33,008 nt of DNA from IMG/VR virus record IMGVR_UViG_3300032216_000376, positions 1 through 33,008 of that record; one strand, 5' to 3'. The translations under genes were made by a program, and so were the position numbers. The stretch's first letter is position 1, and each line of letters opens with the position of its first letter. Shown here piece after piece: positions 5,462 to 31,240 of the stretch. The notes below the pieces were generated by a model, which had not been told where the DNA came from, searched no databases, and worked only from the letters and a program-made list of their open reading frames with translations. The DNA comes from a virus (lineage: Duplodnaviria > Caudoviricetes).

Positions 5462-7827
5462 GAACAAGTTATTCACGTCGTGAACTATATGCTTTGGGCG
5501 AGCCGCTCGGGGATAGTGCTACCTACCGTAAGATGGATGGCGGTTTAATTTTTGGTGATGGTGGTAGTTCAGCCCCAGTACAAGAAACAAAAGCCAGCAC
5601 GGAACTGCCCGAGTGGGCAAAACCGTATGCTAAAGATATATTAGCTAAGGGTCAGGCGTTAACCGACGTTACCCAAAACCCGTATCAGCAATACGACCAA
5701 GCACGCGTTGCAGGGTTTTCCCCAATGCAACAGCAGGCAATGCAAAACGCCCAAGGTATGTCTGTATCCCCACAAACGGGTGAGGCAACTGCTGGCGCAA
5801 CTATGGCTGGACTTGGTGGTATGGGCGTAGCTGGTCAGGCTAATCAGTACGGGTTCCAAAATCAAGTTGGTGGGTACATGAACCCCTACTTGCAACAGTC
5901 TTTGGCTCCTCAGTTAGCGGAGGCTAATCGTGCGTACGATATTGGTGCTACTAAACAACAAAGTGCAGCAACGCAAGCCGGTGCATTTGGCGGTTCCCGT
6001 GAAGCGATCATGGCTGCGGAAAATGAACGTAACCGTAATCAAGGTTTAAATAGCATTGTTGGTCAGGGCTATAACACTGCGTTTAACAATGCGCAGAACC
6101 AATACAACCAAAATAACCAGACGCAACTTGCTGGTTACGGCCTAATGAATCAAGCTGCGGCTAACTTAGGGCAACTAGGTCAGAATCAGTACGGCCAAGA
6201 AATGGGCATCAACCAACTGCAGAATCAGTACGGCACTGCACAGCAAAACTTAATGCAAACTGGCTTGAACAACGCATATCAAGACTTCCAAAACCAGCAG
6301 AACTACCCATACAAACAGTTAGGCTTCATGTCCGACATGATTCGTGGCTTGCCACTGGGTCAGCAATCTACATCTCAGATTTACCAAGGTGCTCCTACTG
6401 CGCTACAAACTGTAGGCGCTTTGGGTATGGGTGCGTATGGTATCAATCAGCTAAGCAAAGCAGATGGCGGTTCAGTTTATGGGTATGCCGACGGCGGAGA
6501 AGTCAAACGCTATAACGGTGGCGAAGACTCGGTAACAAGTTCAAATAACACCGAACAAATTATTGGTACGCTTAGCTTAAAACAACTACATGACGCATAT
6601 CAAAATGCACAAGCGCGTGGTGATAAGCAAACAGCCATGTTAATTGCCCAACAGATAGAAAAAGTACAAGGGCAAGAAGCAAACAAATCTATACAAAATG
6701 GTATTGCTGGTGCTATGCCTCAGCAGATGGTTGACGGAATTGTGAATGCCGCAGGTGGTGGCATCTTGGCTTTTGCTGGGGATGAAGAGGAAAATGACTC
6801 CACTTCTGGGCAGTTAGTCGGTGGTCTTGGTGCGTTAATGCCATCTAGAGGTAATCCAGCTCAATACGCTAATATTACTAACGCATACCCGCAACTCCTT
6901 GCAAACGTGGCTGGGCAAAGACCCAAATACATGTCCGATGAAGACTACGATGCCCGTACAAAAAAAGAAATGGCGTTATACAGAGAAGCCGCAGGACCAA
7001 GCTCTTACGCCAATATCGGTGATTTAGTTGGTCAACTGGGTGAACAAGGTAAACAAAACGTATCACAAGGTAAAGGTTTAGCAGCATTAGCCGCAATGGA
7101 AGGTATGTTGCAACCCGGTGGAACTATTCGTGGTATTGGCAAAGCAGCAAGAGGTTTTGCTGAAGCCTACTCGCCTATCCTTAAAGCTGACCAAGACCTC
7201 CAACGCTCAATGATTGGCATGAGAATTAACTTGGCCGACGCAGAACGTAAAGAAAATGTGGGTGCGTTTACTCAAGCCCGTACCGCAGCAGATGCAGCAC
7301 GCAGATCACACGATGCCGCAGAAGCCGCTCGCGGTAAGAAGGCTATGGACGTCGCTAACTTGGCGGCTCGTATGGCGTCTACTGTTAAACCGACTGGCAC
7401 AGGTGGGGCTGGTGGCGCTGGCAAAGAACCTAAGTTCAACGAAGCTGCGCTTAAATTTAATATTGAAGATATGTTGAACAGAGAGAAACCAAAAGAAGGT
7501 GAATCACCGAAAGCGTTTGAGTCGCGCATTAAAGCGGCAGCTGTTGCCAAAACTGCAACACAAATTAAAAACGATCCGCAACTTAAAGCTGCGGTTGATA
7601 CATTCCGTACCTCTGCAACTTCGGACACTGAGGTTGAGAAAGTAGTTAAGAGTTCTAAGTTTTCTGATCCAGATTGGACAAGGGCGTACGAAAACGGAGA
7701 TACTCAAGGCATGGCCAGAGCAGAGGACGCACTTGCTGCTAATATACGAAGTCGTCAAACTGCTACAAACCCAACAAAACCGGGTGGTGGCGGTGGAGGT
7801 TCTAACATAATCAAAATCCCAGATTAA
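5458..7827 (+). CDS. Internal virion (DNA ejection/pilot) protein
   Basis: 789 aa, Gln/Ala/Gly-rich and helical. Motifs LPEWAKPY, YMNPY, AGAFGGSR and QQNYPYKQLGFMSD are typical of podovirus DNA transfer proteins. Confidence 0.7.
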   Translation: MRTSYSRRELYALGEPLGDSATYRKMDGGLIFGDGGSSAPVQETKASTELPEWAKPYAKDILAKGQALTDVTQNPYQQYDQARVAGFSPMQQQAMQNAQGMSVSPQTGEATAGATMAGLGGMGVAGQANQYGFQNQVGGYMNPYLQQSLAPQLAEANRAYDIGATKQQSAATQAGAFGGSREAIMAAENERNRNQGLNSIVGQGYNTAFNNAQNQYNQNNQTQLAGYGLMNQAAANLGQLGQNQYGQEMGINQLQNQYGTAQQNLMQTGLNNAYQDFQNQQNYPYKQLGFMSDMIRGLPLGQQSTSQIYQGAPTALQTVGALGMGAYGINQLSKADGGSVYGYADGGEVKRYNGGEDSVTSSNNTEQIIGTLSLKQLHDAYQNAQARGDKQTAMLIAQQIEKVQGQEANKSIQNGIAGAMPQQMVDGIVNAAGGGILAFAGDEEENDSTSGQLVGGLGALMPSRGNPAQYANITNAYPQLLANVAGQRPKYMSDEDYDARTKKEMALYREAAGPSSYANIGDLVGQLGEQGKQNVSQGKGLAALAAMEGMLQPGGTIRGIGKAARGFAEAYSPILKADQDLQRSMIGMRINLADAERKENVGAFTQARTAADAARRSHDAAEAARGKKAMDVANLAARMASTVKPTGTGGAGGAGKEPKFNEAALKFNIEDMLNREKPKEGESPKAFESRIKAAAVAKTATQIKNDPQLKAAVDTFRTSATSDTEVEKVVKSSKFSDPDWTRAYENGDTQGMARAEDALAANIRSRQTATNPTKPGGGGGGSNIIKIPD

Positions 7828-7835
7828 GGCTACAG

Positions 7836-10800
7836 ATGCCAATCTACGAGTACAAAGGGCAGCAATATGATGTTGCTACGGATGATGTAGCTGCGGCTAA
7901 ATCTAAAATATTAGGTTATCTAGAAAAACAATCTGCCCCCGCTGAGGAAAAGCCAGCGCCTGCGAAAGCAGCACCGATAGCCACTATGGGCGGCGACCCT
8001 ATGGGCGGCGATCTTGGTTCAGAAATTATGGGTGCGGCCACACCTAGCGAGACTAGCGGTACTGGCGAAGCTGTAAACCCTAAGGGTAAATCCGTATTTG
8101 AGCGCACTGCGCTAAAAAATATTCCCGCACCAACGGTTGACTACCAAAAGAACTTAGAGACTATGCGTCGTAGCGAGTCTCCTGAGTCAGTCATGTTTAC
8201 CCCCGGTCGCCGACTTGAAGCAATTAACGCGCAAATTGAAGGCGGGAAAAAGCAAGAAGAAGCGACCAAACAAAAACTAGCTGAGCAAGATGCCACTAAG
8301 CGATTCCTGCTAAATAGGCAGGCAGAAGCGGAAGATTACGGCGTTGGTAGAGGTGCTGCAGATGTTGGATTGTCTGCGGCAAAAGGCATAGTTGATCTAG
8401 GTCAAATGGGTATAGGCCTTGCAAATATTGCTACTGGTTGGATTCCCGGCGACAAGAATATCAATCCATTGCAAATTGGGCAGTGGGGAAAAATGCTGGA
8501 TAAGCTCGGCTATGACCCACAAAAAACAAATGAATTTCTTACTGGGTTTCAATCACCCCAGATGCAAAAGCAGTTAAACAATGTAGAGGATTCCAAAGGA
8601 TTCTTTAACAGTTTAAAAGCAATAGCAGTAAACCCATTAGCACTTACCGACACTATTGTTCGGTCGATGCCTTCCATGTTTGGTGGCGGCGCTGCTGGCG
8701 GCGCTCTATTACGTTTTTGGGAATCTAAAGCTGCAAACGAGGCGGCAAAACTTGGGCTTAAAGGTGCGGCTGCAGAAACATTTGTAGCAGATAAAGTTCG
8801 TAACGCGGCTATTTTTGCTGCCCATGCGGGTGAGGGCGCGGTTACTGCAGGTGGTATAGCTGAACAAGCACGGGAAGCCGGAGTTGATTGGGATCAATAT
8901 GTAGCTCCCGCTGTCGCCGCTGGACTTATTACTGGTGGTATTGGTTATGGCGCGGGTAAAGCTGCTGCGCGATTAGGTATAGGTGATCTTGAGGCATCTG
9001 TCGCTGCAAAAATGGCTGGCGTCAAAGGAGTAGGTGTAGGCGACCTTAATATGGGTTTGCCAAGGTATGTCTTTAGCGAAGCGCTTAAAGAAGGCGTACT
9101 AGAAGAACTACCTCAGTCCACGCAAGAACAAATATTTACTAATTTAGCTATGGGTCGTCCTTGGAGTGAAGGCGTACCCGAAGCATCTGCGCAAGGTTTA
9201 GTAACCGGTGCTGTCATGGGTGGCGGACATGCAACCTACTCCCGCGCACTTAATCGTCTTGGCCAACTTGCACAAGAAAAACAAAGAGAAGGCGCGTATC
9301 AACGCGATACAAGTTACGAAGGTTTGTCCGAACTGATTGCTAGACAAAAAGGATTCTTGACTCCGCAAGATCAGCAACAACGTCAGCAACAAACACAACA
9401 GCAGCAAGAACAAGCTCCTCCACCTGCGGTACAGGAAGAAGCACCTGCAGTACAAGAAGAAGCACCTGCCGTAACTCCAGAAGCAAGGGAAGCTACGATT
9501 GCTCAGTTAGCCACAGAGATTGCCGAGACACAAGGCGTCCCTGATGAAGACGCACGTCGTATGGCTGAGGCTAGGATTACTGCGCAAGAGCAACAACAAA
9601 AGCGCGACACCGCCAAACTTGCAACTAAACCACAAGACGACAGAATTAGAGCCAGAGCGCAGGAGTTACTGTCAGAAGGCTATGTGCAAGACGCTCAAGA
9701 AGCTATTGATACAGCAAAAACTCAAATACAAGACGAAGATGAAGCCGATGCACTTGCCGAAAGTGAAGCTAAAGGAGAAGCAAATGTTGGACAACCTAAC
9801 GCAGCCCCAAGTGGAACAAGCGCTAAAGTGGCTGGCGCAACCAATAAAGAACCCACCGCCACAGGAGTTGGAGGAGGTGAACGACCTAGAGTGGTTCCTA
9901 CTAAACCGGATGCTACTAGCGCTGATGGAAGAGAAACTCCAAAGCCCGCTACAGTAAGTTACGAAGGGCAAGATTACCTAGATACACCCCGTATTCGTTC
10001 GCTGATTAAAAAAGCCGACAACATTAACAAGGCTGTGCCGTCTGTACCTGAGGGTATGACTCGTTTGTGGCGTGGTAACCGTCCCGGTGAAGTTGGTCAA
10101 AACCCATCGTTTACTAATTCTTTAGTCGGTATCGCGCTCCCATTTAATGAGTCATATGGCGGCGATCTATCCTATGTGGATGTGCCAACTGCAGACTTAA
10201 GTAAGTACGAATCTGTTGGGGCAGTAGCAAAAGGCGCTGAGTTTAGAGTTACTCCAGAGATTGCCGCCACTGCGCAAGTAGTCCCAGCTAAAAAGCGTGG
10301 GCCAAAAGGTCCTCGGTTAGCCGCAGAAGAAAAAGAAAAGAAGGCGGTAGAGAAGAAAGCCACCGATGCTTTGATTGGCAGAGCACGTCGTGCGCTTACT
10401 AGTATTACAAAACTATTTGAGGAACTGCCTAAGCAGTTAGCCGAAGGTAAAACTAATGAGGCTGCTGCGCGTGCAAAGATAACTACTGAAGTTACAAAGC
10501 TACTTAAAAACCAACAAGAGCTACGCGATGCTGGGTTGGCCGGTTCAGCAGAAGGCAAGCGCATCAAAAAGTTTTTAGAAGCCAACGCACGCGAAGTTTC
10601 AGCCGTACAAGCCAACTTAGCCGCTCAAGAAGAAAGCTTAACCGCTCAAGAATCTGGTGAAGAGGAAACTGGTGCATCTTCAACAATCAACAAAGAACCC
10701 GCCGACGAAAGAATAAGTAAGTTCACAACTGGCGCTCAAGCTGTAACGCATGTCATCAAGACAGGCTCGCCATTCCAAGCTCGGTTGGCTAAGCGCCTTC

Positions 10801-13800
10801 GCAGTTTTGTGCAGGGTGTTAAGTTTGTTGTACTGGAAGAAGGTCAAGAAATACCTGAGCAACTCAAGACTCCTAGAAATGCTAAGGCATGGGATCGTTC
10901 GATTGCGCTCTATATTGAGAACTACAAGACAGGTGACCGCGTTATCTATGTGCGTGGCGCGTCATTTGGCAATTCTCAAGGTATCAACAACATCACTATC
11001 TTGCATGAACTCTTGCACGCTGCGACTAACCGCAAGTTGGCTATTGCATTTGAGTACATCAAAAAGGGTGTCTACCTAAACACTCCGGCAGTTAGAGCAG
11101 CGCAAGATTTAATCCGCATCATGAACAGTGCGGCTCGTACATACGAAGACCTAGCTAAGCAGAAGAAGTTGTCGATGGATATGGTTGCGCTTCGCTATGA
11201 CGGAGACATCTTCAACGACCCCCGTGAGTTTGTGTCCTATGGTTTAACCGACCCACAGATGCAAAACTTCTTGATGCAAGCGCACGGCTACGAGGCAGAC
11301 ATGCCATTCTTTACTCGGTTTGTTTCTGCACTGCGTGATCTGCTTGGTATGAAAGATACCGACATCAACGCACTGACCGACCTCATCGTTGCAACCGACA
11401 ACATTTTGAAAGCAAGGGTCCCCGGAGTTCAAATAAACGGCCAGTCCGTCAGTAGCATGTTTGGGTTTAACAAGGGTAAGGCTACGGAAACAGATAGCAC
11501 TCCCACCGTTACTGGGGAAACCATATCGGCTACGCCAAGCGCTAACGTCCAACGCCTTGCAAAGATGCTTGGCTCTAAGTTGTACGGTACGCCCCAAGAT
11601 ATTACTAAGGTGTCGGTCAAAGAGTTGTTCCAAAATTCTTTTGACGCTATTAAAGAAGCAATAGAAAACGGCCAGATTAAAAACGGCAAAGTTGCTATTA
11701 AGCTGGACAAAGATAAACGAACTGTCAACATCACTGACAACGGCCCCGGTATGCCCACCAGTGTGATGGGTAATCAGTTCTTGCAAATTGCTGGTACGGT
11801 AAAAGGTACATCTCGTGCGTCAGGTGGTCTTGGTGTTGCCAAGATGCTGTTCTTGTTTGAGAACAAAAAGTTAGAAGTTGTTTCTCTCCGCGACGGCAAA
11901 TTGTCTCGCATGGTTACAACTGGGGAAGACTTGAAAGCCGCGTTGGATGACCCATCACGCAGTCCAAAGATTACTATTTCAAATAACCCAGCCGACATTG
12001 AGAAATACAAAGATATATTTCCTGATGGGCACGGCACATCTGTAACCATTGAAATTCCTGAGTCATACACTGATTCTTCCAGCGGTGAAGAAAAGAAAAT
12101 TGACTTTCCGATTTCAGCTCACTACTACCCTGTATTAGAAAAAAGTCCTTTATTTGACGACATAGAAGTTACGTTTGATAGAGGTTCTGGCCGTCCAGAT
12201 AAATTGCAGCTTGGTAGCAACTTCCCTATCAATGACTTCACGCCTTTTGCAAATGTAAATTTTGCTTGGGGTACTGCGCGTGTCTATGTATCTAAAAAGA
12301 TAGTAAAAAATTATGGCGATAACGCCCATGTGCTGTCTAATGGTTTATGGCAATTTGATAGAAGCATTAAAGACCGACCCGGATATGACGGTAAGGCAAT
12401 TCAACGTACCTTCTATGTTGATGTATCCCCTTCCCCAGACGTTAAACCTGAGGATGCTGGCTATCCGTTTGACCTAAACCGTCAAGGCTTCTCGAAGCAA
12501 GCTAATGCCGACTTTGACAAAATCTTTAACTACATCACTGCGATCTACAGCCAACTAGATTTGGCCGCAGGTATTAAAAACTTTGGCACTGTTCAGTACG
12601 TCAACCCAAACGGTAGCTTGACTACCGCAGAAATACTTGAGCCTAAAGCACCACGTAGCGAAAACGCTTTTACTCTGATTAAACCCGGAGATAGCGTAGA
12701 AGTCCGCGATGGTGTTTTGTACGTCAACAACAGGAAGTTGCCAGAGCTTACCGCCGACGACTTAAAGAATACTGCGGTGCGCATCGACGAGTTGACTATC
12801 CCCCAAAAGGATATCAACCCACAGAAGGTCATGATTCATGACAACACTCGGTTCGAGATAGACGATAAAGTTTTAACGCAGCAAGGTTGGGATGTAGTAG
12901 TAATAGACAACTCATGGGTTGCTGTTAAAGACGGTAAAAAATACACTGAACCCGGTTCGATGGAAGAGTTAGTAGCTCAGATGGAAGCTGACGGGGCGAT
13001 AAAGTCCGAGTCTCTTTCTGAACGTGCCCGTGATAAGTTTGGTGATCGGTATGACAAGTACCTTGCTGAGATTGGTCAAACATTCCAACTACTTCGTAGT
13101 GCTCTAGTAGCCGGTGGCCGTGGTGAATACGGTGATTTAGCAAGCCAAGCAATCGGTACAAGTATTGACAACGAGTATTACGGTGTTAGTATCATGGTCC
13201 CGTTCAAGGGCATGTTTATCAATCCGACAACGACCGACATGCGCGACACTCCTGAGGAGGTTGCCATATCAATGATTGGTACGATGATCCATGAATTGGC
13301 TCACTTTAAAGCACGCAATCACGGTGCCGAGTTTGCTAGTGAGATGCAGAAGGTAATGACCTTATTGAAGGTCTACCCTGCTATTGATTTAGACCAAGTC
13401 GAGAAAAACTTAACTAAGCATATCGCTAAGAACAAAGACATTTTTGACTTTTTAAATAAGGAGTTCCGTAGTGGAAATCTCAAACCTCGTGGAAACCGCT
13501 TCAAAGACGCTGGCGGGTACCAGCAAATTGAAAATGAAGGCTCTACTGAGTCAGTGGAAGGCACTAGCGGAGCAGGAGAAGGGTGGAGACCCAGCCTATC
13601 CCAAATCGCTGGGCCTAGCGATCAGAACGCTGGACAAGTCGGCATCGGTGAAGGACTTGATAACGAAGCTCAAGAAGTCGGAGAGGCAGTAAGAAGTCAA
13701 AAGGCTATTGAGCGTGAGGCTCAGGTAGTCGGTGAAAAATTCAATGAGTCCGTAAAAGGCTACGAGTTTGGCAAAGCTGCAACGGCTTTGCAGATGGCAC

Positions 13801-16652
13801 AGGACCCTCGTAAAGTTATACCTGCTTTAGCAGCGTTATGGAAGAGAGCAAACGCGGCGCAACGTAGAGCTTTGGTAGCTGCACCTACTACGGAATTCTT
13901 AGCTGATTGGGCTGGCAACAACGTCCCGCAATTAAAGACGGTTTCTAATCTGCTTCAACGCATGAACGGCATGACGCTGCAACTGTTGAGGTCGGCTGGT
14001 GAATTAACAAACGAAATTGAGCGGGCATTCCGTGCAGACAAAACCTTGCGGGCTAAGCTCGACAAGATTGCGTTCATGTCTACTTTGATGGAGATTGATC
14101 CATCCAACCCCAACGCAAAAGAACGTAGTCTTAACTTAGACAAGATGTACGCTGAACTTGGCACAGACGGTCAACGCGTATACAAGCGCATTAAGAATCA
14201 TTTTGAAGTCCTGTCTGAGTACATGTCCCGTTTGTTGGATGATCAGATTACAAACTCTAAGTTGCCGATTGCTGAGCAAGCTAACCTGATGAAGAAGATT
14301 AGGGCGATTTACGAGACAGGGTCAAAGATTAGCCCGTACTTCCCGCTGGTGCGTGAAGGCGATTACTGGCTGTCTATCGGTTCAGGGAAAACCCGTAAGT
14401 TCTTTATGTACGAAACGGAAGCTCAGCGCGATGAAGCAATGCAACAATTTGCCGACGAGCGCGTTAAAAAGAAACCCAACGAAACTACTGAAGAGTTTGA
14501 AAAGCGTAGGGCTGAAAACTTAGAAGAACTAATCGGCGACCAAGAGTACAACTTTGGTAATGACATCAGCACTCTGCGCAGAGCCTCTGGTAATACAAGC
14601 GTATTACTTCGTGACATCTTTGTAACGATTGACGGTGCAAGTTTAGGTGACAGTGAGGCCAAAGAACGCTTGAAAGACGCTGTGTATCAAGTGTACCTAC
14701 AGTCCATGCCTGAGCAAAGTTTCCGTCGGCAGTTTATCCACCGCAAGGGAACAACTGGATTCCGTCCTGACCTCCTGCGTAACGTAGCACACACATCTAC
14801 AAAGATGGCTACTCAGCTTGCCCGTATTAAGTATGCTCCGCTGTTGCGTAATGCTATATCTGCTGCGCAGGATTCGATTGCTAACCGACCAAGTATGCAA
14901 CCGTTCGTGACTGAGATGCGGGGCCGGGTTGACTCTTCTCTTTCTCCTGTTAAAGAAGGCGTAGCAGCCAGCATAGTTGGCGGTATCACTAAAGCTTCCT
15001 ACATCTACTATTTGGGTGGCGCATCTTCTGCTTTGCTACAACCCTTAAGTATTTTCCAGACTGGTCTGCCTGTACTGTCTCGCTACGGCGCGTTCAATGC
15101 TACCCGTGAATTGGGCACTATGCTAAAGGTATGGCAGCAGTACGGCGTGTACAAAACCAACAAAGACGGAACTCAATCATGGGTCGCACCTTCCATTGAA
15201 CACGCTAAGGATTTAACTCCGTTAGAGCGCAAGGCTATACGCGAGATGCTGGCACGTGATGTGACTACTTCCACTTATGCAAGCGCAGTGTTTGACTATA
15301 AGAAGACGCCGACCGAGAACCTAAGCTCGCCTATCACAAACTTTGGTAAAGGTACCGTGGACTTGTTGGTGCTTGGTGGCTTGATGCACTCGACCGAGCG
15401 CTTGTCTCGTGAGATCATGTTCATGAGCTCGTTCCGCTTAAACATAAAAGAAGGCAAATCTTTTGAAGAGGCGGTAGATCAAGCGACCTACGATACCAAC
15501 GAAGCTCTGGGCAACTATGGCGAGTACAACCGACCCACATTCATGAAGGGTTTAGGCGGCAAGTTACTGACGCAGTTCATGATGTATCCGTTGCATGTAA
15601 CGCTATTCTTGCTCAAAAACTTTAAAGAGATGATTAAGCCGATGGACGGACGTACCCGTGTTGAGGCAGTGCAGAAGTTCTTTGGTACTTTGGGTACAAC
15701 TTACATCCTCGGCGGTTACGTTGCTCTACCAATGTTTAGCACAATCATGGGCTTGCTTGGCTGGGCATGGGAAGCATTAAAGGATAAAGATTGGCCTGAG
15801 GATTTACGGTCTATGAGCTTTGAGTTCTGGTTCCGTACTGTTTGGATGCCTAAGCAACTTGGCGAAACTGAAATTGGTGGTAAGAAGCTGTCCGACATCC
15901 TTGAGCGCGGTCCTGTTAACGCATTGACTGGGCTTGATATTTCTGGCCGTACCAGCCTCAACAACTTATGGTTGCGGGACACTAAAGAAGCCAAGACAAT
16001 CAAAGAAGAGGTCATGAACATGATGCTCGAGAAGTCTGGTGCTGGCGTGAATATGATGGTGTCTATGGCTGAAGGGCTTTCTGCTCTGGCGCATGGGGAC
16101 ACAGCCAAAGGTGTGAAAAAACTATTACCCGCTGGCTTTAGAAACTTTGTCACTGCAAATGAGTATTGGAAAGAAGGCGCTAAGGACAACAAAGGCACTC
16201 GGATTCTGTCTAAGGATGCGTTTACTACTGGTCAGATAATTGGTCAGGCTGTCGGCTTCCGTTCTGATTTACTGGCTAACACGCAATACGTAAACTTCAA
16301 GGCGATCGGCATTCAGCAACACATCCTCAATGAACGTCAGGCATTGCTAAACAATCTTGATCGTGAGTTTAGAAACAAAAACATGAAGAAGTTTGGCACC
16401 TACATGAAGGACATGAACGAGTTCAATCGCAAGTTCCCAACGTACCAAATCAGTGGTGACAACCTTTCAGATGCGCTCGAAGGTAATGCCGAGAAACGCG
16501 CAAAGGCTTTACGTGGGTTTGAACTCAACGAGAAGAACATGCCTTTACTTGGTAATGCACTTGCTCCGTCTCGTAAAGCGGCTAGGACGGCAGAAGCTAA
16601 AGGTCGCGTAGAAAATACAAGAGAAGTCTCTGGCCGACTAGAACGCCCATAA
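7836..16652 (+). CDS. Giant polyvalent internal virion protein (ART-like + zincin + GHKL ATPase + zincin + PLxRFG/LPD-type C-terminus)
   Basis: 2938-aa uninterrupted ORF. Motifs: RLWRG..SFTNS..AEF (~aa 743-803); HELLH (aa 1057) with EFVSYG (aa 1131); ELFQNSFDA / DNGPGM / GGLG / GTSV (aa 1263-1403); HELAHFKARNH (aa 1819); YFPLVREGDY (aa ~2170). Confidence 0.9.
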   Translation: MPIYEYKGQQYDVATDDVAAAKSKILGYLEKQSAPAEEKPAPAKAAPIATMGGDPMGGDLGSEIMGAATPSETSGTGEAVNPKGKSVFERTALKNIPAPTVDYQKNLETMRRSESPESVMFTPGRRLEAINAQIEGGKKQEEATKQKLAEQDATKRFLLNRQAEAEDYGVGRGAADVGLSAAKGIVDLGQMGIGLANIATGWIPGDKNINPLQIGQWGKMLDKLGYDPQKTNEFLTGFQSPQMQKQLNNVEDSKGFFNSLKAIAVNPLALTDTIVRSMPSMFGGGAAGGALLRFWESKAANEAAKLGLKGAAAETFVADKVRNAAIFAAHAGEGAVTAGGIAEQAREAGVDWDQYVAPAVAAGLITGGIGYGAGKAAARLGIGDLEASVAAKMAGVKGVGVGDLNMGLPRYVFSEALKEGVLEELPQSTQEQIFTNLAMGRPWSEGVPEASAQGLVTGAVMGGGHATYSRALNRLGQLAQEKQREGAYQRDTSYEGLSELIARQKGFLTPQDQQQRQQQTQQQQEQAPPPAVQEEAPAVQEEAPAVTPEAREATIAQLATEIAETQGVPDEDARRMAEARITAQEQQQKRDTAKLATKPQDDRIRARAQELLSEGYVQDAQEAIDTAKTQIQDEDEADALAESEAKGEANVGQPNAAPSGTSAKVAGATNKEPTATGVGGGERPRVVPTKPDATSADGRETPKPATVSYEGQDYLDTPRIRSLIKKADNINKAVPSVPEGMTRLWRGNRPGEVGQNPSFTNSLVGIALPFNESYGGDLSYVDVPTADLSKYESVGAVAKGAEFRVTPEIAATAQVVPAKKRGPKGPRLAAEEKEKKAVEKKATDALIGRARRALTSITKLFEELPKQLAEGKTNEAAARAKITTEVTKLLKNQQELRDAGLAGSAEGKRIKKFLEANAREVSAVQANLAAQEESLTAQESGEEETGASSTINKEPADERISKFTTGAQAVTHVIKTGSPFQARLAKRLRSFVQGVKFVVLEEGQEIPEQLKTPRNAKAWDRSIALYIENYKTGDRVIYVRGASFGNSQGINNITILHELLHAATNRKLAIAFEYIKKGVYLNTPAVRAAQDLIRIMNSAARTYEDLAKQKKLSMDMVALRYDGDIFNDPREFVSYGLTDPQMQNFLMQAHGYEADMPFFTRFVSALRDLLGMKDTDINALTDLIVATDNILKARVPGVQINGQSVSSMFGFNKGKATETDSTPTVTGETISATPSANVQRLAKMLGSKLYGTPQDITKVSVKELFQNSFDAIKEAIENGQIKNGKVAIKLDKDKRTVNITDNGPGMPTSVMGNQFLQIAGTVKGTSRASGGLGVAKMLFLFENKKLEVVSLRDGKLSRMVTTGEDLKAALDDPSRSPKITISNNPADIEKYKDIFPDGHGTSVTIEIPESYTDSSSGEEKKIDFPISAHYYPVLEKSPLFDDIEVTFDRGSGRPDKLQLGSNFPINDFTPFANVNFAWGTARVYVSKKIVKNYGDNAHVLSNGLWQFDRSIKDRPGYDGKAIQRTFYVDVSPSPDVKPEDAGYPFDLNRQGFSKQANADFDKIFNYITAIYSQLDLAAGIKNFGTVQYVNPNGSLTTAEILEPKAPRSENAFTLIKPGDSVEVRDGVLYVNNRKLPELTADDLKNTAVRIDELTIPQKDINPQKVMIHDNTRFEIDDKVLTQQGWDVVVIDNSWVAVKDGKKYTEPGSMEELVAQMEADGAIKSESLSERARDKFGDRYDKYLAEIGQTFQLLRSALVAGGRGEYGDLASQAIGTSIDNEYYGVSIMVPFKGMFINPTTTDMRDTPEEVAISMIGTMIHELAHFKARNHGAEFASEMQKVMTLLKVYPAIDLDQVEKNLTKHIAKNKDIFDFLNKEFRSGNLKPRGNRFKDAGGYQQIENEGSTESVEGTSGAGEGWRPSLSQIAGPSDQNAGQVGIGEGLDNEAQEVGEAVRSQKAIEREAQVVGEKFNESVKGYEFGKAATALQMAQDPRKVIPALAALWKRANAAQRRALVAAPTTEFLADWAGNNVPQLKTVSNLLQRMNGMTLQLLRSAGELTNEIERAFRADKTLRAKLDKIAFMSTLMEIDPSNPNAKERSLNLDKMYAELGTDGQRVYKRIKNHFEVLSEYMSRLLDDQITNSKLPIAEQANLMKKIRAIYETGSKISPYFPLVREGDYWLSIGSGKTRKFFMYETEAQRDEAMQQFADERVKKKPNETTEEFEKRRAENLEELIGDQEYNFGNDISTLRRASGNTSVLLRDIFVTIDGASLGDSEAKERLKDAVYQVYLQSMPEQSFRRQFIHRKGTTGFRPDLLRNVAHTSTKMATQLARIKYAPLLRNAISAAQDSIANRPSMQPFVTEMRGRVDSSLSPVKEGVAASIVGGITKASYIYYLGGASSALLQPLSIFQTGLPVLSRYGAFNATRELGTMLKVWQQYGVYKTNKDGTQSWVAPSIEHAKDLTPLERKAIREMLARDVTTSTYASAVFDYKKTPTENLSSPITNFGKGTVDLLVLGGLMHSTERLSREIMFMSSFRLNIKEGKSFEEAVDQATYDTNEALGNYGEYNRPTFMKGLGGKLLTQFMMYPLHVTLFLLKNFKEMIKPMDGRTRVEAVQKFFGTLGTTYILGGYVALPMFSTIMGLLGWAWEALKDKDWPEDLRSMSFEFWFRTVWMPKQLGETEIGGKKLSDILERGPVNALTGLDISGRTSLNNLWLRDTKEAKTIKEEVMNMMLEKSGAGVNMMVSMAEGLSALAHGDTAKGVKKLLPAGFRNFVTANEYWKEGAKDNKGTRILSKDAFTTGQIIGQAVGFRSDLLANTQYVNFKAIGIQQHILNERQALLNNLDREFRNKNMKKFGTYMKDMNEFNRKFPTYQISGDNLSDALEGNAEKRAKALRGFELNEKNMPLLGNALAPSRKAARTAEAKGRVENTREVSGRLERP
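7984..8011 (+). repeat. Short in-frame tandem repeat, period 15 (MGGDP MGGDL)
   Basis: ctatgggcggcga occurs at 7984-7996 and 7999-8011. Confidence 0.8.
9421..9473 (+). repeat. In-frame tandem repeat, 21-bp period, ~2.5 copies (PAVQEEA)
   Basis: cacctgcggtacaggaagaag / cacctgcagtacaagaagaag / cacctgccgta. Confidence 0.85.
9784..9957 (+). CDS. Candidate nested (overprinted, +1 frame) 57-aa helical protein inside the giant gene
   Basis: SD AAGGAG at 9772-9777, 6 nt before ATG 9784. Product MLDNLTQPQVEQALKWLAQPIKNPPPQELEEVNDLEWFLLNRMLLALMEEKLQSPLQ is amphipathic, while the main frame here is a disordered linker. Confidence 0.6.
   Translation: MLDNLTQPQVEQALKWLAQPIKNPPPQELEEVNDLEWFLLNRMLLALMEEKLQSPLQ
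13471..13692 (+). CDS. Candidate nested (overprinted, +1 frame) 73-aa helical protein inside the giant gene
   Basis: SD TAAGGAG at 13457-13463, 7 nt before GTG 13471. The product is basic and amphipathic, and most of the overlapped main frame is a Gly/Glu-rich linker. Confidence 0.5.
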   Translation: MEISNLVETASKTLAGTSKLKMKALLSQWKALAEQEKGGDPAYPKSLGLAIRTLDKSASVKDLITKLKKSERQ

Positions 16653-16675
16653 AAAATCCCCGCACTAGGCGGGGA
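16651..16675 (-). terminator. Intrinsic terminator of the - strand replication operon
   Basis: Minus strand reads TCCCCGC-CTAGT-GCGGGGA-TTTTTT (7-bp GC stem plus U6). It overlaps the stop codon of the convergent giant gene. Confidence 0.9.
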
Positions 16676-16712
16676 CAAAGGAGGGATGGAGCTAACATCC
16701 TAGACAACTGAT
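16651..16712 (-). ncRNA. Candidate ~62-nt antisense/trans-acting sRNA
   Basis: A -10-like TAAAAT lies at 16724-16719. The RNA has hairpin GGAUG-UUAGCUC-CAUCC, anti-SD CCUCCUUU, then the terminator. It has an 11-nt perfect complement to the RBS at 21334-21324. Confidence 0.45.
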
Positions 16713-16726
16713 GGGTGGATTTTACA

Positions 16727-16921
16727 TTAGGTTCGCCAGACTCGAAGCCCTTTAATCCCATCTAGCAACACTACTTTCGTAACAATATCCATCTTCAATC
16801 TTTTAGCCACACGGTTTAGTTCTTCCCGTGCGGCCTTCTCGTCTATGCAGGGTACAAAGAAGCTGTACCCTTTGCGGAACTTCTTCCACTCAATCTGATA
16901 CGACACTGTCTCGATTTGCAT
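16727..16921 (-). CDS. Small conserved phage protein (hypothetical; possible DNA-binding)
   Basis: 64 aa with W..F..GYSFFVP...GLRVWR. It overlaps the end of the primase-helicase gene. Confidence 0.7.
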   Translation of the reverse strand: MQIETVSYQIEWKKFRKGYSFFVPCIDEKAAREELNRVAKRLKMDIVTKVVLLDGIKGLRVWRT

Positions 16922-20884: not shown

Positions 20885-21322
20885 TCATTTTTCCTTTGAA
20901 CGTCTAACTACCACGGTAAATTCGTTTTCGACATTAAGTCCTTTCGGGTAAATGTCTGGATTCTCTGCAAGAAACTCTTTCATGTGTGTCTGATGAAGTC
21001 TCTTCTCTAACAGGCCATAGTCGCCAACTTCTTCAATGAAGGCGTACATAGAATCCCAATCGTTAGTCCAGTACCGTGACTTAACTGTACGAACGATCGT
21101 GCCATGTGGGGTGCGTATGCTATCAGCGCCTTGCTCTTTGCAAGTGTCTAGCATCTGTTGTTCGAGCACTTCGAGTTGTTCTTCTAACTCTGCGTGGTCG
21201 GCTTTGTATTTTGCGGTGAGGTTGTCACGCGCATCACGAATCTTTATGTAGATCATCGTGAGTTTGTCTAGGGAAATGTCGGGTCGGACGGGGGTGACTT
21301 CGTCCTGAACTTCTGCGTCCAT
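20885..21322 (-). CDS. Conserved phage replication-module protein (coiled coil + small beta domain)
   Basis: YIKIRD..coiled coil..SIRTPHGTI..DWDSMYAFI..LLEKR. Start chosen at 21322 because GGAG lies 6 nt upstream; the ORF track start at 21334 has no SD. Confidence 0.75.
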   Translation of the reverse strand: MDAEVQDEVTPVRPDISLDKLTMIYIKIRDARDNLTAKYKADHAELEEQLEVLEQQMLDTCKEQGADSIRTPHGTIVRTVKSRYWTNDWDSMYAFIEEVGDYGLLEKRLHQTHMKEFLAENPDIYPKGLNVENEFTVVVRRSKEK

Positions 21323-21351
21323 CGTTAGCTCCATTTTGTTTTTGGTTGGTC

Positions 21352-23075: not shown

Positions 23076-23358
23076 GGGTCACCTTTTCAATGTTGTGGCT
23101 GTTAAGTTCTTCTTGGGTCAAACCAAACTCCTCGGGGGTTGCCTCCCAAAGTGGTTTGCGCCCCTCATTTTCTACCACCTGTAACATTTTGCCAACTGCA
23201 ATGCTGACCTCCAACATCATCTCGGCTTTGTACTTATTTAGTTCCTGATGGATGATTGAGCCCACCATGTTGACCACGACCCGCTCAACAATTTCGGTGC
23301 ATCGTCGTTTTAGTTCTCCCTCAAGGATGAGGGCTGCGTCTAGTTGTTCATTTTCCAT
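23059..23358 (-). CDS. Hypothetical protein
   Basis: 99 aa with strong SD AGGAG, packed between its neighbours. Confidence 0.75.
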   Translation of the reverse strand: MENEQLDAALILEGELKRRCTEIVERVVVNMVGSIIHQELNKYKAEMMLEVSIAVGKMLQVVENEGRKPLWEATPEEFGLTQEELNSHNIEKVTHAIRE

Positions 23359-23373
23359 TGTTAACTCCTGTTG
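23359..23373 (-). repeat. 15-bp direct repeat (copy 1) spanning stop codon + RBS
   Basis: tgttaactcctgttg is identical to 28844-28858. The minus strand reads CAACAGGAGTTAACA. Confidence 0.85.
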
Positions 23374-28090: not shown

Positions 28091-28119
28091 AGTCTAACAC
28101 AGTGATTTGACTTTGTCAA
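28091..28119 (-). promoter_or_regulatory. Sigma70-type promoter with palindromic operator over the -35
   Basis: Minus strand TTGACA-17 nt-TAGACT with a TG extension. TTGAC-AAA-GTCAA at 28107-28119. Confidence 0.8.
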
Positions 28120-28130
28120 CTACGGACAAT

Positions 28131-28153
28131 AAAAAAGCCACCGATAGGTGGCT
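28131..28153 (-). terminator. Intrinsic terminator
   Basis: Minus strand reads AGCCACC-TATC-GGTGGCT-TTTTT. Confidence 0.88.
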
Positions 28154-28320: not shown

Positions 28321-28842
28321 TTAGTTCAGCTTTTCAATCGCACGATTGAGATACCACTGTGCCTTCTTCAAGTCTTCCAACTTGTTGCCCTTGTGGTCGG
28401 CTCTTGTTATGTATTTCACAACATTGCCAAGGTGATAGTCTAAGCCTTTCGCCTCGATGAAGTCGATAGTCTCTATTCCGCCTGCTTTGTAATGCGGAGG
28501 ATGATTGACCATGTCGGTGTGATGTGTTTCAACGATGCGTTCCATGCGTTCCTTTGCTATGGCTTGACCCATTCTGAACGCTAGTTCGGCCGAACTCTGC
28601 ATACGCTTTTTAGGTTTCGTGTGTTGATGCACTAACTCTTTCATGCGCTCGGGTGTTATCTGCGTGACTGTATCTACTGCGGTAGGTATCTTGGCATCAC
28701 CCTTCATTTTGTGGACTACCTGATGCACATACTGCGGTATCAGCTTCAGTGCGTCTGCTACCTCTCGTGCTTTCGCAGTCGGGTGCTTAGCAATGTAGGC
28801 ACGGATTTGTTGTGACTTGTTTGGTTTTGTGGCTGTAGCCAT
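28321..28842 (-). CDS. HTH-like N-terminus fused to a DUF3310 (T7 gp1.7 / SaV-like) domain
   Basis: C-terminus DMVNHPPHY..GGIETIDFI..GNVVKYITRADHKG..EDLKKAQWYL; N-terminus KSQQIRAYIAKHPTAKAREVADALK..QYVHQV. Confidence 0.85.
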   Translation of the reverse strand: MATATKPNKSQQIRAYIAKHPTAKAREVADALKLIPQYVHQVVHKMKGDAKIPTAVDTVTQITPERMKELVHQHTKPKKRMQSSAELAFRMGQAIAKERMERIVETHHTDMVNHPPHYKAGGIETIDFIEAKGLDYHLGNVVKYITRADHKGNKLEDLKKAQWYLNRAIEKLN

Positions 28843-28843
28843 G

Positions 28844-28858
28844 TGTTAACTCCTGTTG
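28844..28858 (-). repeat. 15-bp direct repeat (copy 2) spanning stop codon + RBS
   Basis: Identical to 23359-23373. Confidence 0.85.
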
Positions 28859-30452: not shown

Positions 30453-31240
30453 TTGTTAGCCTCCTTTGCTTCATAACTGTGATGTATATATCCAAACTCG
30501 ATTCGCCCAACCATCATTTCTTTTATCCACACCTTACGCCCATCCATGTAGTGACGATAGTGACCCCGTCGCTTGTGTCTACGCGGACTAGCATGTGTGC
30601 CATGTGATGTTGTGGGCTCTGCATCTTCTACCTTAGCGGTTACGTCTATCACCCTCCATTCGAAAATGGGGCGTTTGCCTTTGCGTATACGCTTAGCATT
30701 GGATGCGGATGGTCTAGGTCTATACGCCTTTACATATTTCTCCTTATCCATAACTCGACGCATATACTCTATATACTGTTGGGTAATCATCGCCCCCCAA
30801 GATATTGCAAGAAACTCAGTAGCATTTTCATACTTAGAAAGAACTTCCTTAGTAACCAAGTTCTGCTCTAGCATCGCTTTCACAATATTTTCGGGACTGC
30901 GTTGACCCTGTGGCATAAAGAATGTTTTACCACCTTTAGTTAGTAGGCTACCTATATCTCCATGCTTTGTGCGTAATACCGCAACTATGGAATCCACTTC
31001 CCTTTGTATAGTTAGACCAAGCACTGTATCGTCAGATGTTGTGCGCACAAAACCTACGCTCTCAAAAGGTAGCATTACTTCACTAGGCTCTGAACCTAAC
31101 AACTCGGGCACAGTATCCGCAACTCTGTTGAATTCTTCGTCGCTCATCCAATCGAACTTACCCAAGTCAATCCATGTGTAGTCCATCACTGAACCCATAC
31201 TGAATTTGGCTTTCATCATCTCGAGAATGTTCGGAGTCAT
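30446..31240 (-). CDS. Conserved phage protein with C-terminal HxRRGHxR motif
   Basis: KRIRKGKRPIFEW..GTHASPRRHKRRGHYRH..GRKVWIK. Start taken at 31240 (TAATG overlap). Confidence 0.75.
   Translation of the reverse strand: MTPNILEMMKAKFSMGSVMDYTWIDLGKFDWMSDEEFNRVADTVPELLGSEPSEVMLPFESVGFVRTTSDDTVLGLTIQREVDSIVAVLRTKHGDIGSLLTKGGKTFFMPQGQRSPENIVKAMLEQNLVTKEVLSKYENATEFLAISWGAMITQQYIEYMRRVMDKEKYVKAYRPRPSASNAKRIRKGKRPIFEWRVIDVTAKVEDAEPTTSHGTHASPRRHKRRGHYRHYMDGRKVWIKEMMVGRIEFGYIHHSYEAKEANKC

Follow-up and report, generated by a model that had tools for sequence, protein, structure and literature searches.

The replication operon of the tailed phage recorded as IMGVR_UViG_3300032216_000376 ends in a short non-coding stretch on the minus strand, and the question raised by this locus is whether that stretch encodes a small RNA (sRNA) directed at the ribosome-binding sites (RBSs) of the phage's own genes. 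The window analysed here was the whole 33-kb record (33,008 nucleotides, nt). Comparison of the sequences indicates that an anti-RBS element is really present, that it is conserved, and that it co-evolves with two conserved targets. We consider it probable that the element is a trans-encoded phage sRNA of about 62 nt, which would block ribosome loading at the RBSs of the genes starting at 21322 and 28842.

As described in the initial annotation, the minus strand carries a -10-like hexamer, TAAAAT, at 16724-16719, followed after a 6-nt gap by the element at 16712-16651. The last replication gene encodes a product of 64 amino acids (aa). The hexamer lies 2 nt past its stop codon and is separated by 17 nt from the predicted promoter's -35 slot (16742-16747, minus strand), which falls within the last codons (Leu-Arg) of that gene and reads CTTCGA here. 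The start of the predicted sRNA was deduced from the -10 hexamer and its end from the U-tract of an intrinsic terminator (16651-16676, minus strand; stem, 16676-16656), which would end both the replication operon and the sRNA and whose U-tract overlaps the stop codon of a convergent late gene of 2938 aa. A seed hairpin at 16684-16700 (minus strand) has a 5-base-pair (bp) stem and the 7-nt loop UUAGCUC, and a second block complementary to Shine-Dalgarno (SD) sequences, CUCCUUU at 16677-16683 (minus strand), precedes the terminator. Hairpin and terminator folded as had been claimed, with all 7 loop bases unpaired, and the loop together with the 3' strand of its stem is antisense to the target RBS. 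The loop opens with UUAG, in agreement with the YUNR motif that excerpts of PMC4485353 give for recognition loops; the agreement may be incidental because the elements of the GGAGCGA class (L227-L233) lack YUNR. No Rfam match was obtained for the window at E ≤ 1, nor at the gathering threshold for 15 related loci.

The principal pairing partner proposed for the loop was found to be exact. Positions 16696-16686 are the perfect 11-nt complement of 21334-21324, about 4.6 kb away, in the RBS of the first gene of the same operon (target 1; 21323-21334, minus strand). This 11-mer matched twice in the window, to itself and to the target, against 0.02 matches expected, and none of 100 shuffles reached two. 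The shorter motif GGAGYTAAC had four matches against 0.46 expected, and its three non-self copies all lay directly upstream of minus-strand starts, at 21322 and, as annotated initially, at 23358 and 28842. With RNAduplex, the element and target 1 formed a 12-bp helix with a 5-bp GUCUA/UGGAC extension (-22.4 kcal/mol); the extension thus pairs in this genome as proposed, but it is not retained in the closest relatives L004, L005, and L006. The true start of the target 1 gene is most likely 21322, because the ATG at 21334 belongs to the RBS and is absent in L004. Target 1 lies about 22 nt past a near-consensus promoter, TTGACA-16-TATACT (21379-21352, minus strand), with a 13-bp palindrome across its -35, and therefore forms the 5' end of the mRNA made from the operon. 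A TTGACA with palindrome-like 13-mers occurred within 260 nt of the operon start in 75 of 78 representatives.

Subsequently, the corresponding loci of relatives were fetched from viral and metagenome contigs using the 64-aa protein, each alignment scan being the best 80 of roughly 300-430 confirmed. The 315 loci with enough downstream DNA gave 168 distinct elements. In 151 of these, TAnnnT was located exactly 2 nt past the stop codon of the 64-aa gene, and the bases flanking the hexamer varied freely (44 representatives). A TTG or TTA Leu codon occupied the -35 slot in 33 of the 44 representatives, compared with 34 of the 107 Leu codons elsewhere in the gene (p=1.7e-6); the slot was mostly TTGCGN in relatives, of which the CTTCGA of this genome is a poor variant. 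By these measures, the predicted promoter dedicated to the sRNA is conserved and under selection. A stem followed by a T-run was present downstream in 164 of the 168 elements. For pairing, 125 elements were usable, having the terminator, the promoter hexamer, a primase segment, and the target RBS in the locus, and 43 were dropped. In none of the 125 was the stem preceded by an A-run, which would restrict the terminator to the sRNA strand; the predicted lengths of these elements were 40-99 nt. The body of the element between the -10 and the terminator varies, yet it tracks the phage's own RBSs. The loop UU(A/C)G(C/U)UC was found in 45 of the 168 elements, in which the stems differ in sequence but in a compensatory manner.

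Covariation of seed and target, which had been set beforehand as the test able to overturn the proposal, was observed for both the 21322 and the 28842 genes. When lineages were cut at 85% primase identity, giving 37, the elements paired with their own RBS at -17.6 kcal/mol and with the RBSs of others at -13.7 kcal/mol (p≤5e-5), and the cognate partner ranked in the top 3 for 17 lineages. The RBS of the adjacent second gene had no cognate excess (33 lineages, p=0.18). Compensatory seed/RBS classes could be recognized by eye, namely GGAGCUAAC, GGAGCGAAC, GGAACUAAC, GGAGCAAAC, GGAGCGA, AGGAGAAUCA, and CAAGGAGAAA, and a CUA/CGA switch had occurred inside one clade (L286/L295 versus L062/L296). The state GGAGC[UG]R was found in 21 targets and 20 elements, 19 times in both, with 7 changes in each on a 57-row tree. 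Furthermore, swapping partners in 27 phylogenetically independent pairs had a mean cost of 3.5 kcal/mol (sign-flip p 0.004), and control RBSs in the same test gave p 0.11 and 0.87. The element accordingly has what defines the sRNA class as far as sequence can tell: a predicted promoter of its own, an intrinsic terminator, small size, and an exposed, covarying seed.

The second target was the RBS of the DUF3310 gene (28842-28321), which reads GGAGUUAACA with one G-U pair (28844-28853, minus strand) and belongs to a separate transcription unit. A terminator-like hairpin (28153-28136) and a second palindrome-bearing promoter (28119-28091), together at 28091-28153 on the minus strand, part it from the operon, and a terminator-like site was located within 600 nt past the DUF3310 gene in 26 of 33 genomes. 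The comparison of eight orthologous RBSs drew on 35 genomes whose upstream arm extended up to 20 kb. Cognate specificity was confined to two RBSs, those of the 21322 gene (-4.40) and of the DUF3310 gene (-3.23; both p=5e-5), the latter test covering 33 of the 35 genomes, of which 32 were negative. The six control RBSs (28061, polymerase, exonuclease, helicase, 32252, and the second gene), whose starts were set by a simple rule and may be wrong in some cases, showed no cognate specificity (p 0.11-0.99). After thinning to 19 lineages, 19 of 19 values for 21322 and 17 of 17 for 28842 were negative (p 5e-5 and 1e-4); with thinning to 19 and to 15 lineages both targets remained significant (p≤1.5e-4) and the six controls non-significant. 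The RBSs of 32252, the VRR-NUC-like 28061, the polymerase, the exonuclease, the helicase, and the second operon gene were accordingly rejected as targets. The weaker match proposed initially before 32252 does exist; however, it was no better than a control RBS (-8.2 versus -8.9) and gave p=0.15 in the ortholog test.

The initial annotation had left two possibilities, a trans-acting sRNA or pairing between the 5' and 3' ends of the operon mRNA. In the latter case no separate RNA would be needed: the 3' untranslated region (UTR) of the operon would fold onto its own 5' RBS, as in icaR, or a processed 3' fragment would act in trans. Target 1 and the element do share one promoter-to-terminator unit with no convincing terminator between them, the -35 of this genome is poor, and covariation would look identical. 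On the other hand, no role would then remain for a -10 conserved in non-coding DNA or for the codon bias at the -35, the pairing would have to bridge 4.6 kb of translated mRNA, and target 2 belongs to another unit. Because the terminator-like hairpin separates the units, the pairing at 28842 cannot be a fold-back within one mRNA unless the terminator leaks; it would therefore take place in trans. For this reason the trans-encoded sRNA fits better than end pairing, and an explanation by the 3' UTR appears to us rather unlikely.

Other RBSs were also matched by the element. Beyond target 1, the 35 genomes had 81 cognate helices of at least 9 Watson-Crick pairs, compared with 1.15 per non-cognate cell (p=5e-5, a comparison made without kinship correction). 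This genome has two of them, at 28842 and at 23358, where the RBS of a 99-aa gene is a possible third target (23359-23368, minus strand). A possible fourth is the two-block match noted initially before 30452, which is present ahead of a 34-codon open reading frame (ORF; 30454-30469, minus strand) and falls under the 9-bp cut-off. Net dimer energies were -15.4 (21322), -15.0 (23358), -16.6 (30452), -10.2 (28842), and -8.2 kcal/mol (32252), and those of four late genes ranged from -2.4 to -6.4 kcal/mol. In comparison with the elements of other lineages, only 21322 stood out in this genome (z -3.4). The best net pairing genome-wide (-19.4 kcal/mol) was located at 31418-31374 on the minus strand, where a 55-codon ORF has its RBS and its start (31407), a site absent from the initial annotation.

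Several observations weigh against the sRNA reading. The -35 of this genome matches the consensus at 2 of 6 positions, and the promoter scan did not list it. Folding showed no preference for the sRNA strand (50 of 125 elements), and the G-U counts in terminator stems leaned away from it (22 versus 44). The secondary sites were less distinctive when compared with the elements of other lineages (23358, z -0.9; 28842, z -0.6), and some coding windows reach about -18 kcal/mol net. No RNA from the element was seen, although the five public runs examined, with 7-10% of the words, consist of contigs and carry little weight on expression either way: they gave only diverged relatives, and one 8.6-kb contig had flat depth across the site with no ends. 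As for covariation, binary independent-pair tests comprised only 2-4 pairs and were underpowered, and the plain sign test over all independent pairs was not significant (about 15 better versus 8 worse, p 0.21). In addition, 22 of 75 representatives, those with a long leader, showed little cognate pairing with target 1 (-0.61 kcal/mol).

If the locus were an ordinary terminator region, the match could have arisen by chance, shared ancestry, or neutral copying of an RBS. Any pyrimidine-rich stretch pairs with SD sequences, the relatives share a history, and the sign test over all pairs was not significant. Nevertheless, six control RBSs in the same genomes lack a cognate excess, the signal outlasts both thinning and independent swaps, and the promoter is conserved. 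The cognate, swap, ortholog, and thinning tests have largely refuted this explanation, which we regard as scarcely credible.

The leader length itself was related to the pairing. The 53 short-leader representatives had a cognate pairing of -4.45 kcal/mol, and in this subset, which was picked post hoc, 20 pairs gave about 12 versus 3 (sign p 0.035, sign-flip 0.0008). Nearly all long-leader representatives carry a hairpin or a structured insert of about 110 nt, and in several long-leader genomes the DUF3310 RBS matches the element too (G015, -7.7; G016, an 11-bp helix). The 110-nt insert was seen in the operon 5' leader of one clade (L012, about 5495-5610; also L010, L016, L035, L055, L126, and L209). 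It has a long closing stem, a hairpin loop GGUUAGC that resembles the sRNA seed, and a second conserved motif, and neither the insert nor the long leaders gave an Rfam match; it is possibly a second regulatory RNA.

That long-leader lineages miss target 1 would also be expected if the element were made but activated or sponged its partners, or mainly hit host mRNAs with the phage RBSs being secondary. Many elements have extra modules that match nothing in the phage, such as a CAGUUG 5' hairpin (32 of 78 representatives) and two or more anti-SD blocks (at least two in 46 of 78). However, the helices span both SD and spacer in leaders that are unstructured (target minimum free energy, -0.9 to -6.1), a position at which they should block initiation, and the seed tracks phage RBSs lineage by lineage. 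Activation, sponging, or a chiefly host-directed role thus seems improbable. In the window CAGUUG is at 16710-16705, and in relatives it often forms the loop of the 5' hairpin with variable stems. A conserved phage target of this loop was not identified, and it may address host mRNAs.

The opposite strand has to be considered as well. Read-through of the late operon could display the RBS-mimic loop as a protein decoy, or the motif could be a DNA site. Read-through is plausible because the strand of the late gene lacks a U-tract (0 of 125), and the hairpin folds on both strands. In contrast, promoter and terminator both run along the minus strand. In the 9-nt core of true seed/target combinations, from which L038 was set aside as not a true seed, all 4 transition mismatches were G-U compatible, compared with 2 edge transversions, although these numbers are small. 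The opposite-strand mini-ORF (M-E-L-T-S) was conserved in only 2 of 45 and was rejected, and in G030 a 14-bp DNA repeat stayed unchanged while seed and target switched. A function of the opposite strand is therefore judged very improbable. Late read-through over 16650-16730 (plus strand) would produce RNA complementary to the sRNA, with possible inactivation of the latter.

The 14-bp repeat, a near-palindrome CTAACA-AA-TGTTAG, is repeated 12-22 times, with at most 2 mismatches, across the early regions of many relatives, for example at L067, L068, L072, L078, and L079 (early arms of G003, G007, G016, G028, and G030). The copies are strand-biased, often with a start codon inside, and resemble an operator-like array. 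The window has one copy with 1 mismatch (30459-30446), and G001, G002, and G014 have 0-1. It was rejected as the source of the seed.

Returning to the trans-encoded sRNA, we propose the following course of action. The RNA would be transcribed from the internal promoter located where the last replication gene ends. Loop-to-linear pairing would begin on the unstructured, C/A-rich leader and extend into the 3' strand of the stem, and the resulting helix would cover the SD and spacer and block initiation. Translation of the first gene would be lowered, and that of the overlapping downstream genes too, by coupling or polarity. A -35 this poor points to transcription that is weak or delayed, with the RNA accumulating as genome copies rise. 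With an output that scales with genome copies, early and replication functions would then come under delayed or late negative feedback. The sRNA would act alongside a likely autorepressor of the helix-turn-helix (HTH) type at the palindromic promoter. The 13-bp palindrome TTGACA-N-TGTCAA lies over the -35 of both replication promoters (21379-21367 and 28119-28107), is kept in relatives, and is probably the operator for the HTH gene at 19969-19736.

The surrounding genes are those of a tailed phage. The plus strand encodes late structural and ejection genes up to the 2938-aa gene ending at 16652, whose product (7836-16652) has a DarB-like C-terminal similarity and sub-threshold matches to HATPase_c and LPD39. 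The minus strand encodes DNA polymerase A, an exonuclease, an SNF2 helicase, and a five-gene unit comprising a 145-aa gene, a 303-aa gene, the HTH gene, a DUF927 primase-helicase, and the 64-aa gene. The 145-aa target 1 gene (20885-21322, minus strand) gave weak Mu Gam/Gp157-like and Pam3 gp33-like matches, all under Pfam cut-offs; its PHROG label, "minor head protein", is doubtful for a gene that opens the replication operon. The 303-aa gene may be an ssb gene, and the sole lead from a search was Pam3 gp34-like. The 64-aa gene (16727-16921, minus strand), last in the operon and host to the predicted sRNA promoter, belongs to no known family; the idea that its product is an RNA chaperone was unsupported. 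The predicted folds of the 145-aa and 64-aa proteins had no significant match in the PDB.

Complete relatives are 60-66 kb long. No integrase was found in the complete relative G014 among the 57 ORFs scanned of 66 called, and we infer from this that the phage group is probably virulent. The DNA polymerase of G014 (L070:9641-12301; 887 aa) has an intein-like, endonuclease-like insert at residues 425-709. A search of genome contigs for a prophage host gave one 1-kb contig of a metagenome-assembled genome and three weak matches, and no such host was found. The cultured kin are remote, namely Pseudomonas phage Rollin and Rhizobium phages of the RHph_TM27A type (23-31% identity). In Rollin the convergent genes overlap at the corresponding place, and TM27A has a 64-nt gap with a terminator, in which a similar unit was not seen by eye.

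Among known systems, sar of phage P22 overlaps its target. The element, in comparison with sar and OOP, has targets 4.6 and 12 kb away and pairs with them through 10-12 bp only. P22 sar and lambda OOP resemble it in being phage RNAs of 60-80 nt with their own promoter that lower the expression of a phage gene by base pairing; in the portions of PMC12197685 available, OOP is listed as cis and sar as trans, and both control lysogeny genes. The likeness to OOP suggested initially is therefore loose, OOP being cis-encoded; unlike cis-encoded OOP and RNAII, the element is on the same strand as its targets and does not overlap them. The c4 RNA of P1 and P7 is likewise encoded by a phage; segments displayed in its loops pair around the RBS of a phage mRNA, and it acts together with a protein that represses the same operon, whereas it comes from the operon start and controls icd/ant in a temperate phage (PMC12197685 and PMC8198154, in part). 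The present element differs in its 3'-end position, its own predicted promoter, and its targets, the Gam/Gp157-like and DUF3310 genes, and it did not match the C4/c4 models of Rfam.

The icaR unit of S. aureus carries at its 3' terminus an anti-SD motif that base-pairs with the SD at its own 5' end, but that unit is monocistronic and the motif a generic UCCCC (excerpts of PMC3868564). Here, the unit is polycistronic and 4.6 kb long, the seed is lineage-specific, an internal promoter is conserved, and the second target is in another unit. Single-transcript pairing of the icaR type would be plausible for target 1 and unlikely for target 2. Plasmid pMV158 has a comparable arrangement, in which a replication operon is under both a small transcriptional repressor, CopG, and a translation-inhibiting antisense RNA, RNAII, although RNAII is a fully complementary, plasmid-borne countertranscript (PMC4485353, as far as the excerpts extend). 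The element is instead encoded in trans and on the same strand, and the HTH protein is a putative repressor. On these comparisons, the predicted mode of action is that of c4, of sar, or of bacterial sRNAs encoded in trans, and the element falls outside the Rfam families. Literature searches found no description of it, and the motif was absent from seven of the nine supplementary files of PMC10690425, within the text accessible for these.

Reviews of phage antisense RNAs, so far as PMC12197685 was available, describe them as mostly steering lysogeny or host genes. If the reading favoured here is true, a phage group that is probably virulent would control its own replication and early genes through a trans-encoded sRNA, and the SD-to-start spacer could serve as an address code. 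The natural compensatory variants in dozens of lineages would offer ready and cheap experiments on seed-RBS specificity, and potentially an orthogonal set of riboregulators. More tentatively, and with somewhat less than even confidence, we suggest that widespread, apparently virulent tailed phages carry a programmable anti-RBS sRNA of modular build, whose loops are retuned in each lineage to the SD-to-start "address tags" of a fixed gene pair and of lineage-specific extras. Such an RNA-only regulon switch would stop early and replication translation as copy number rises, and its further modules, such as the CAGUUG loop, would possibly be directed at the host.

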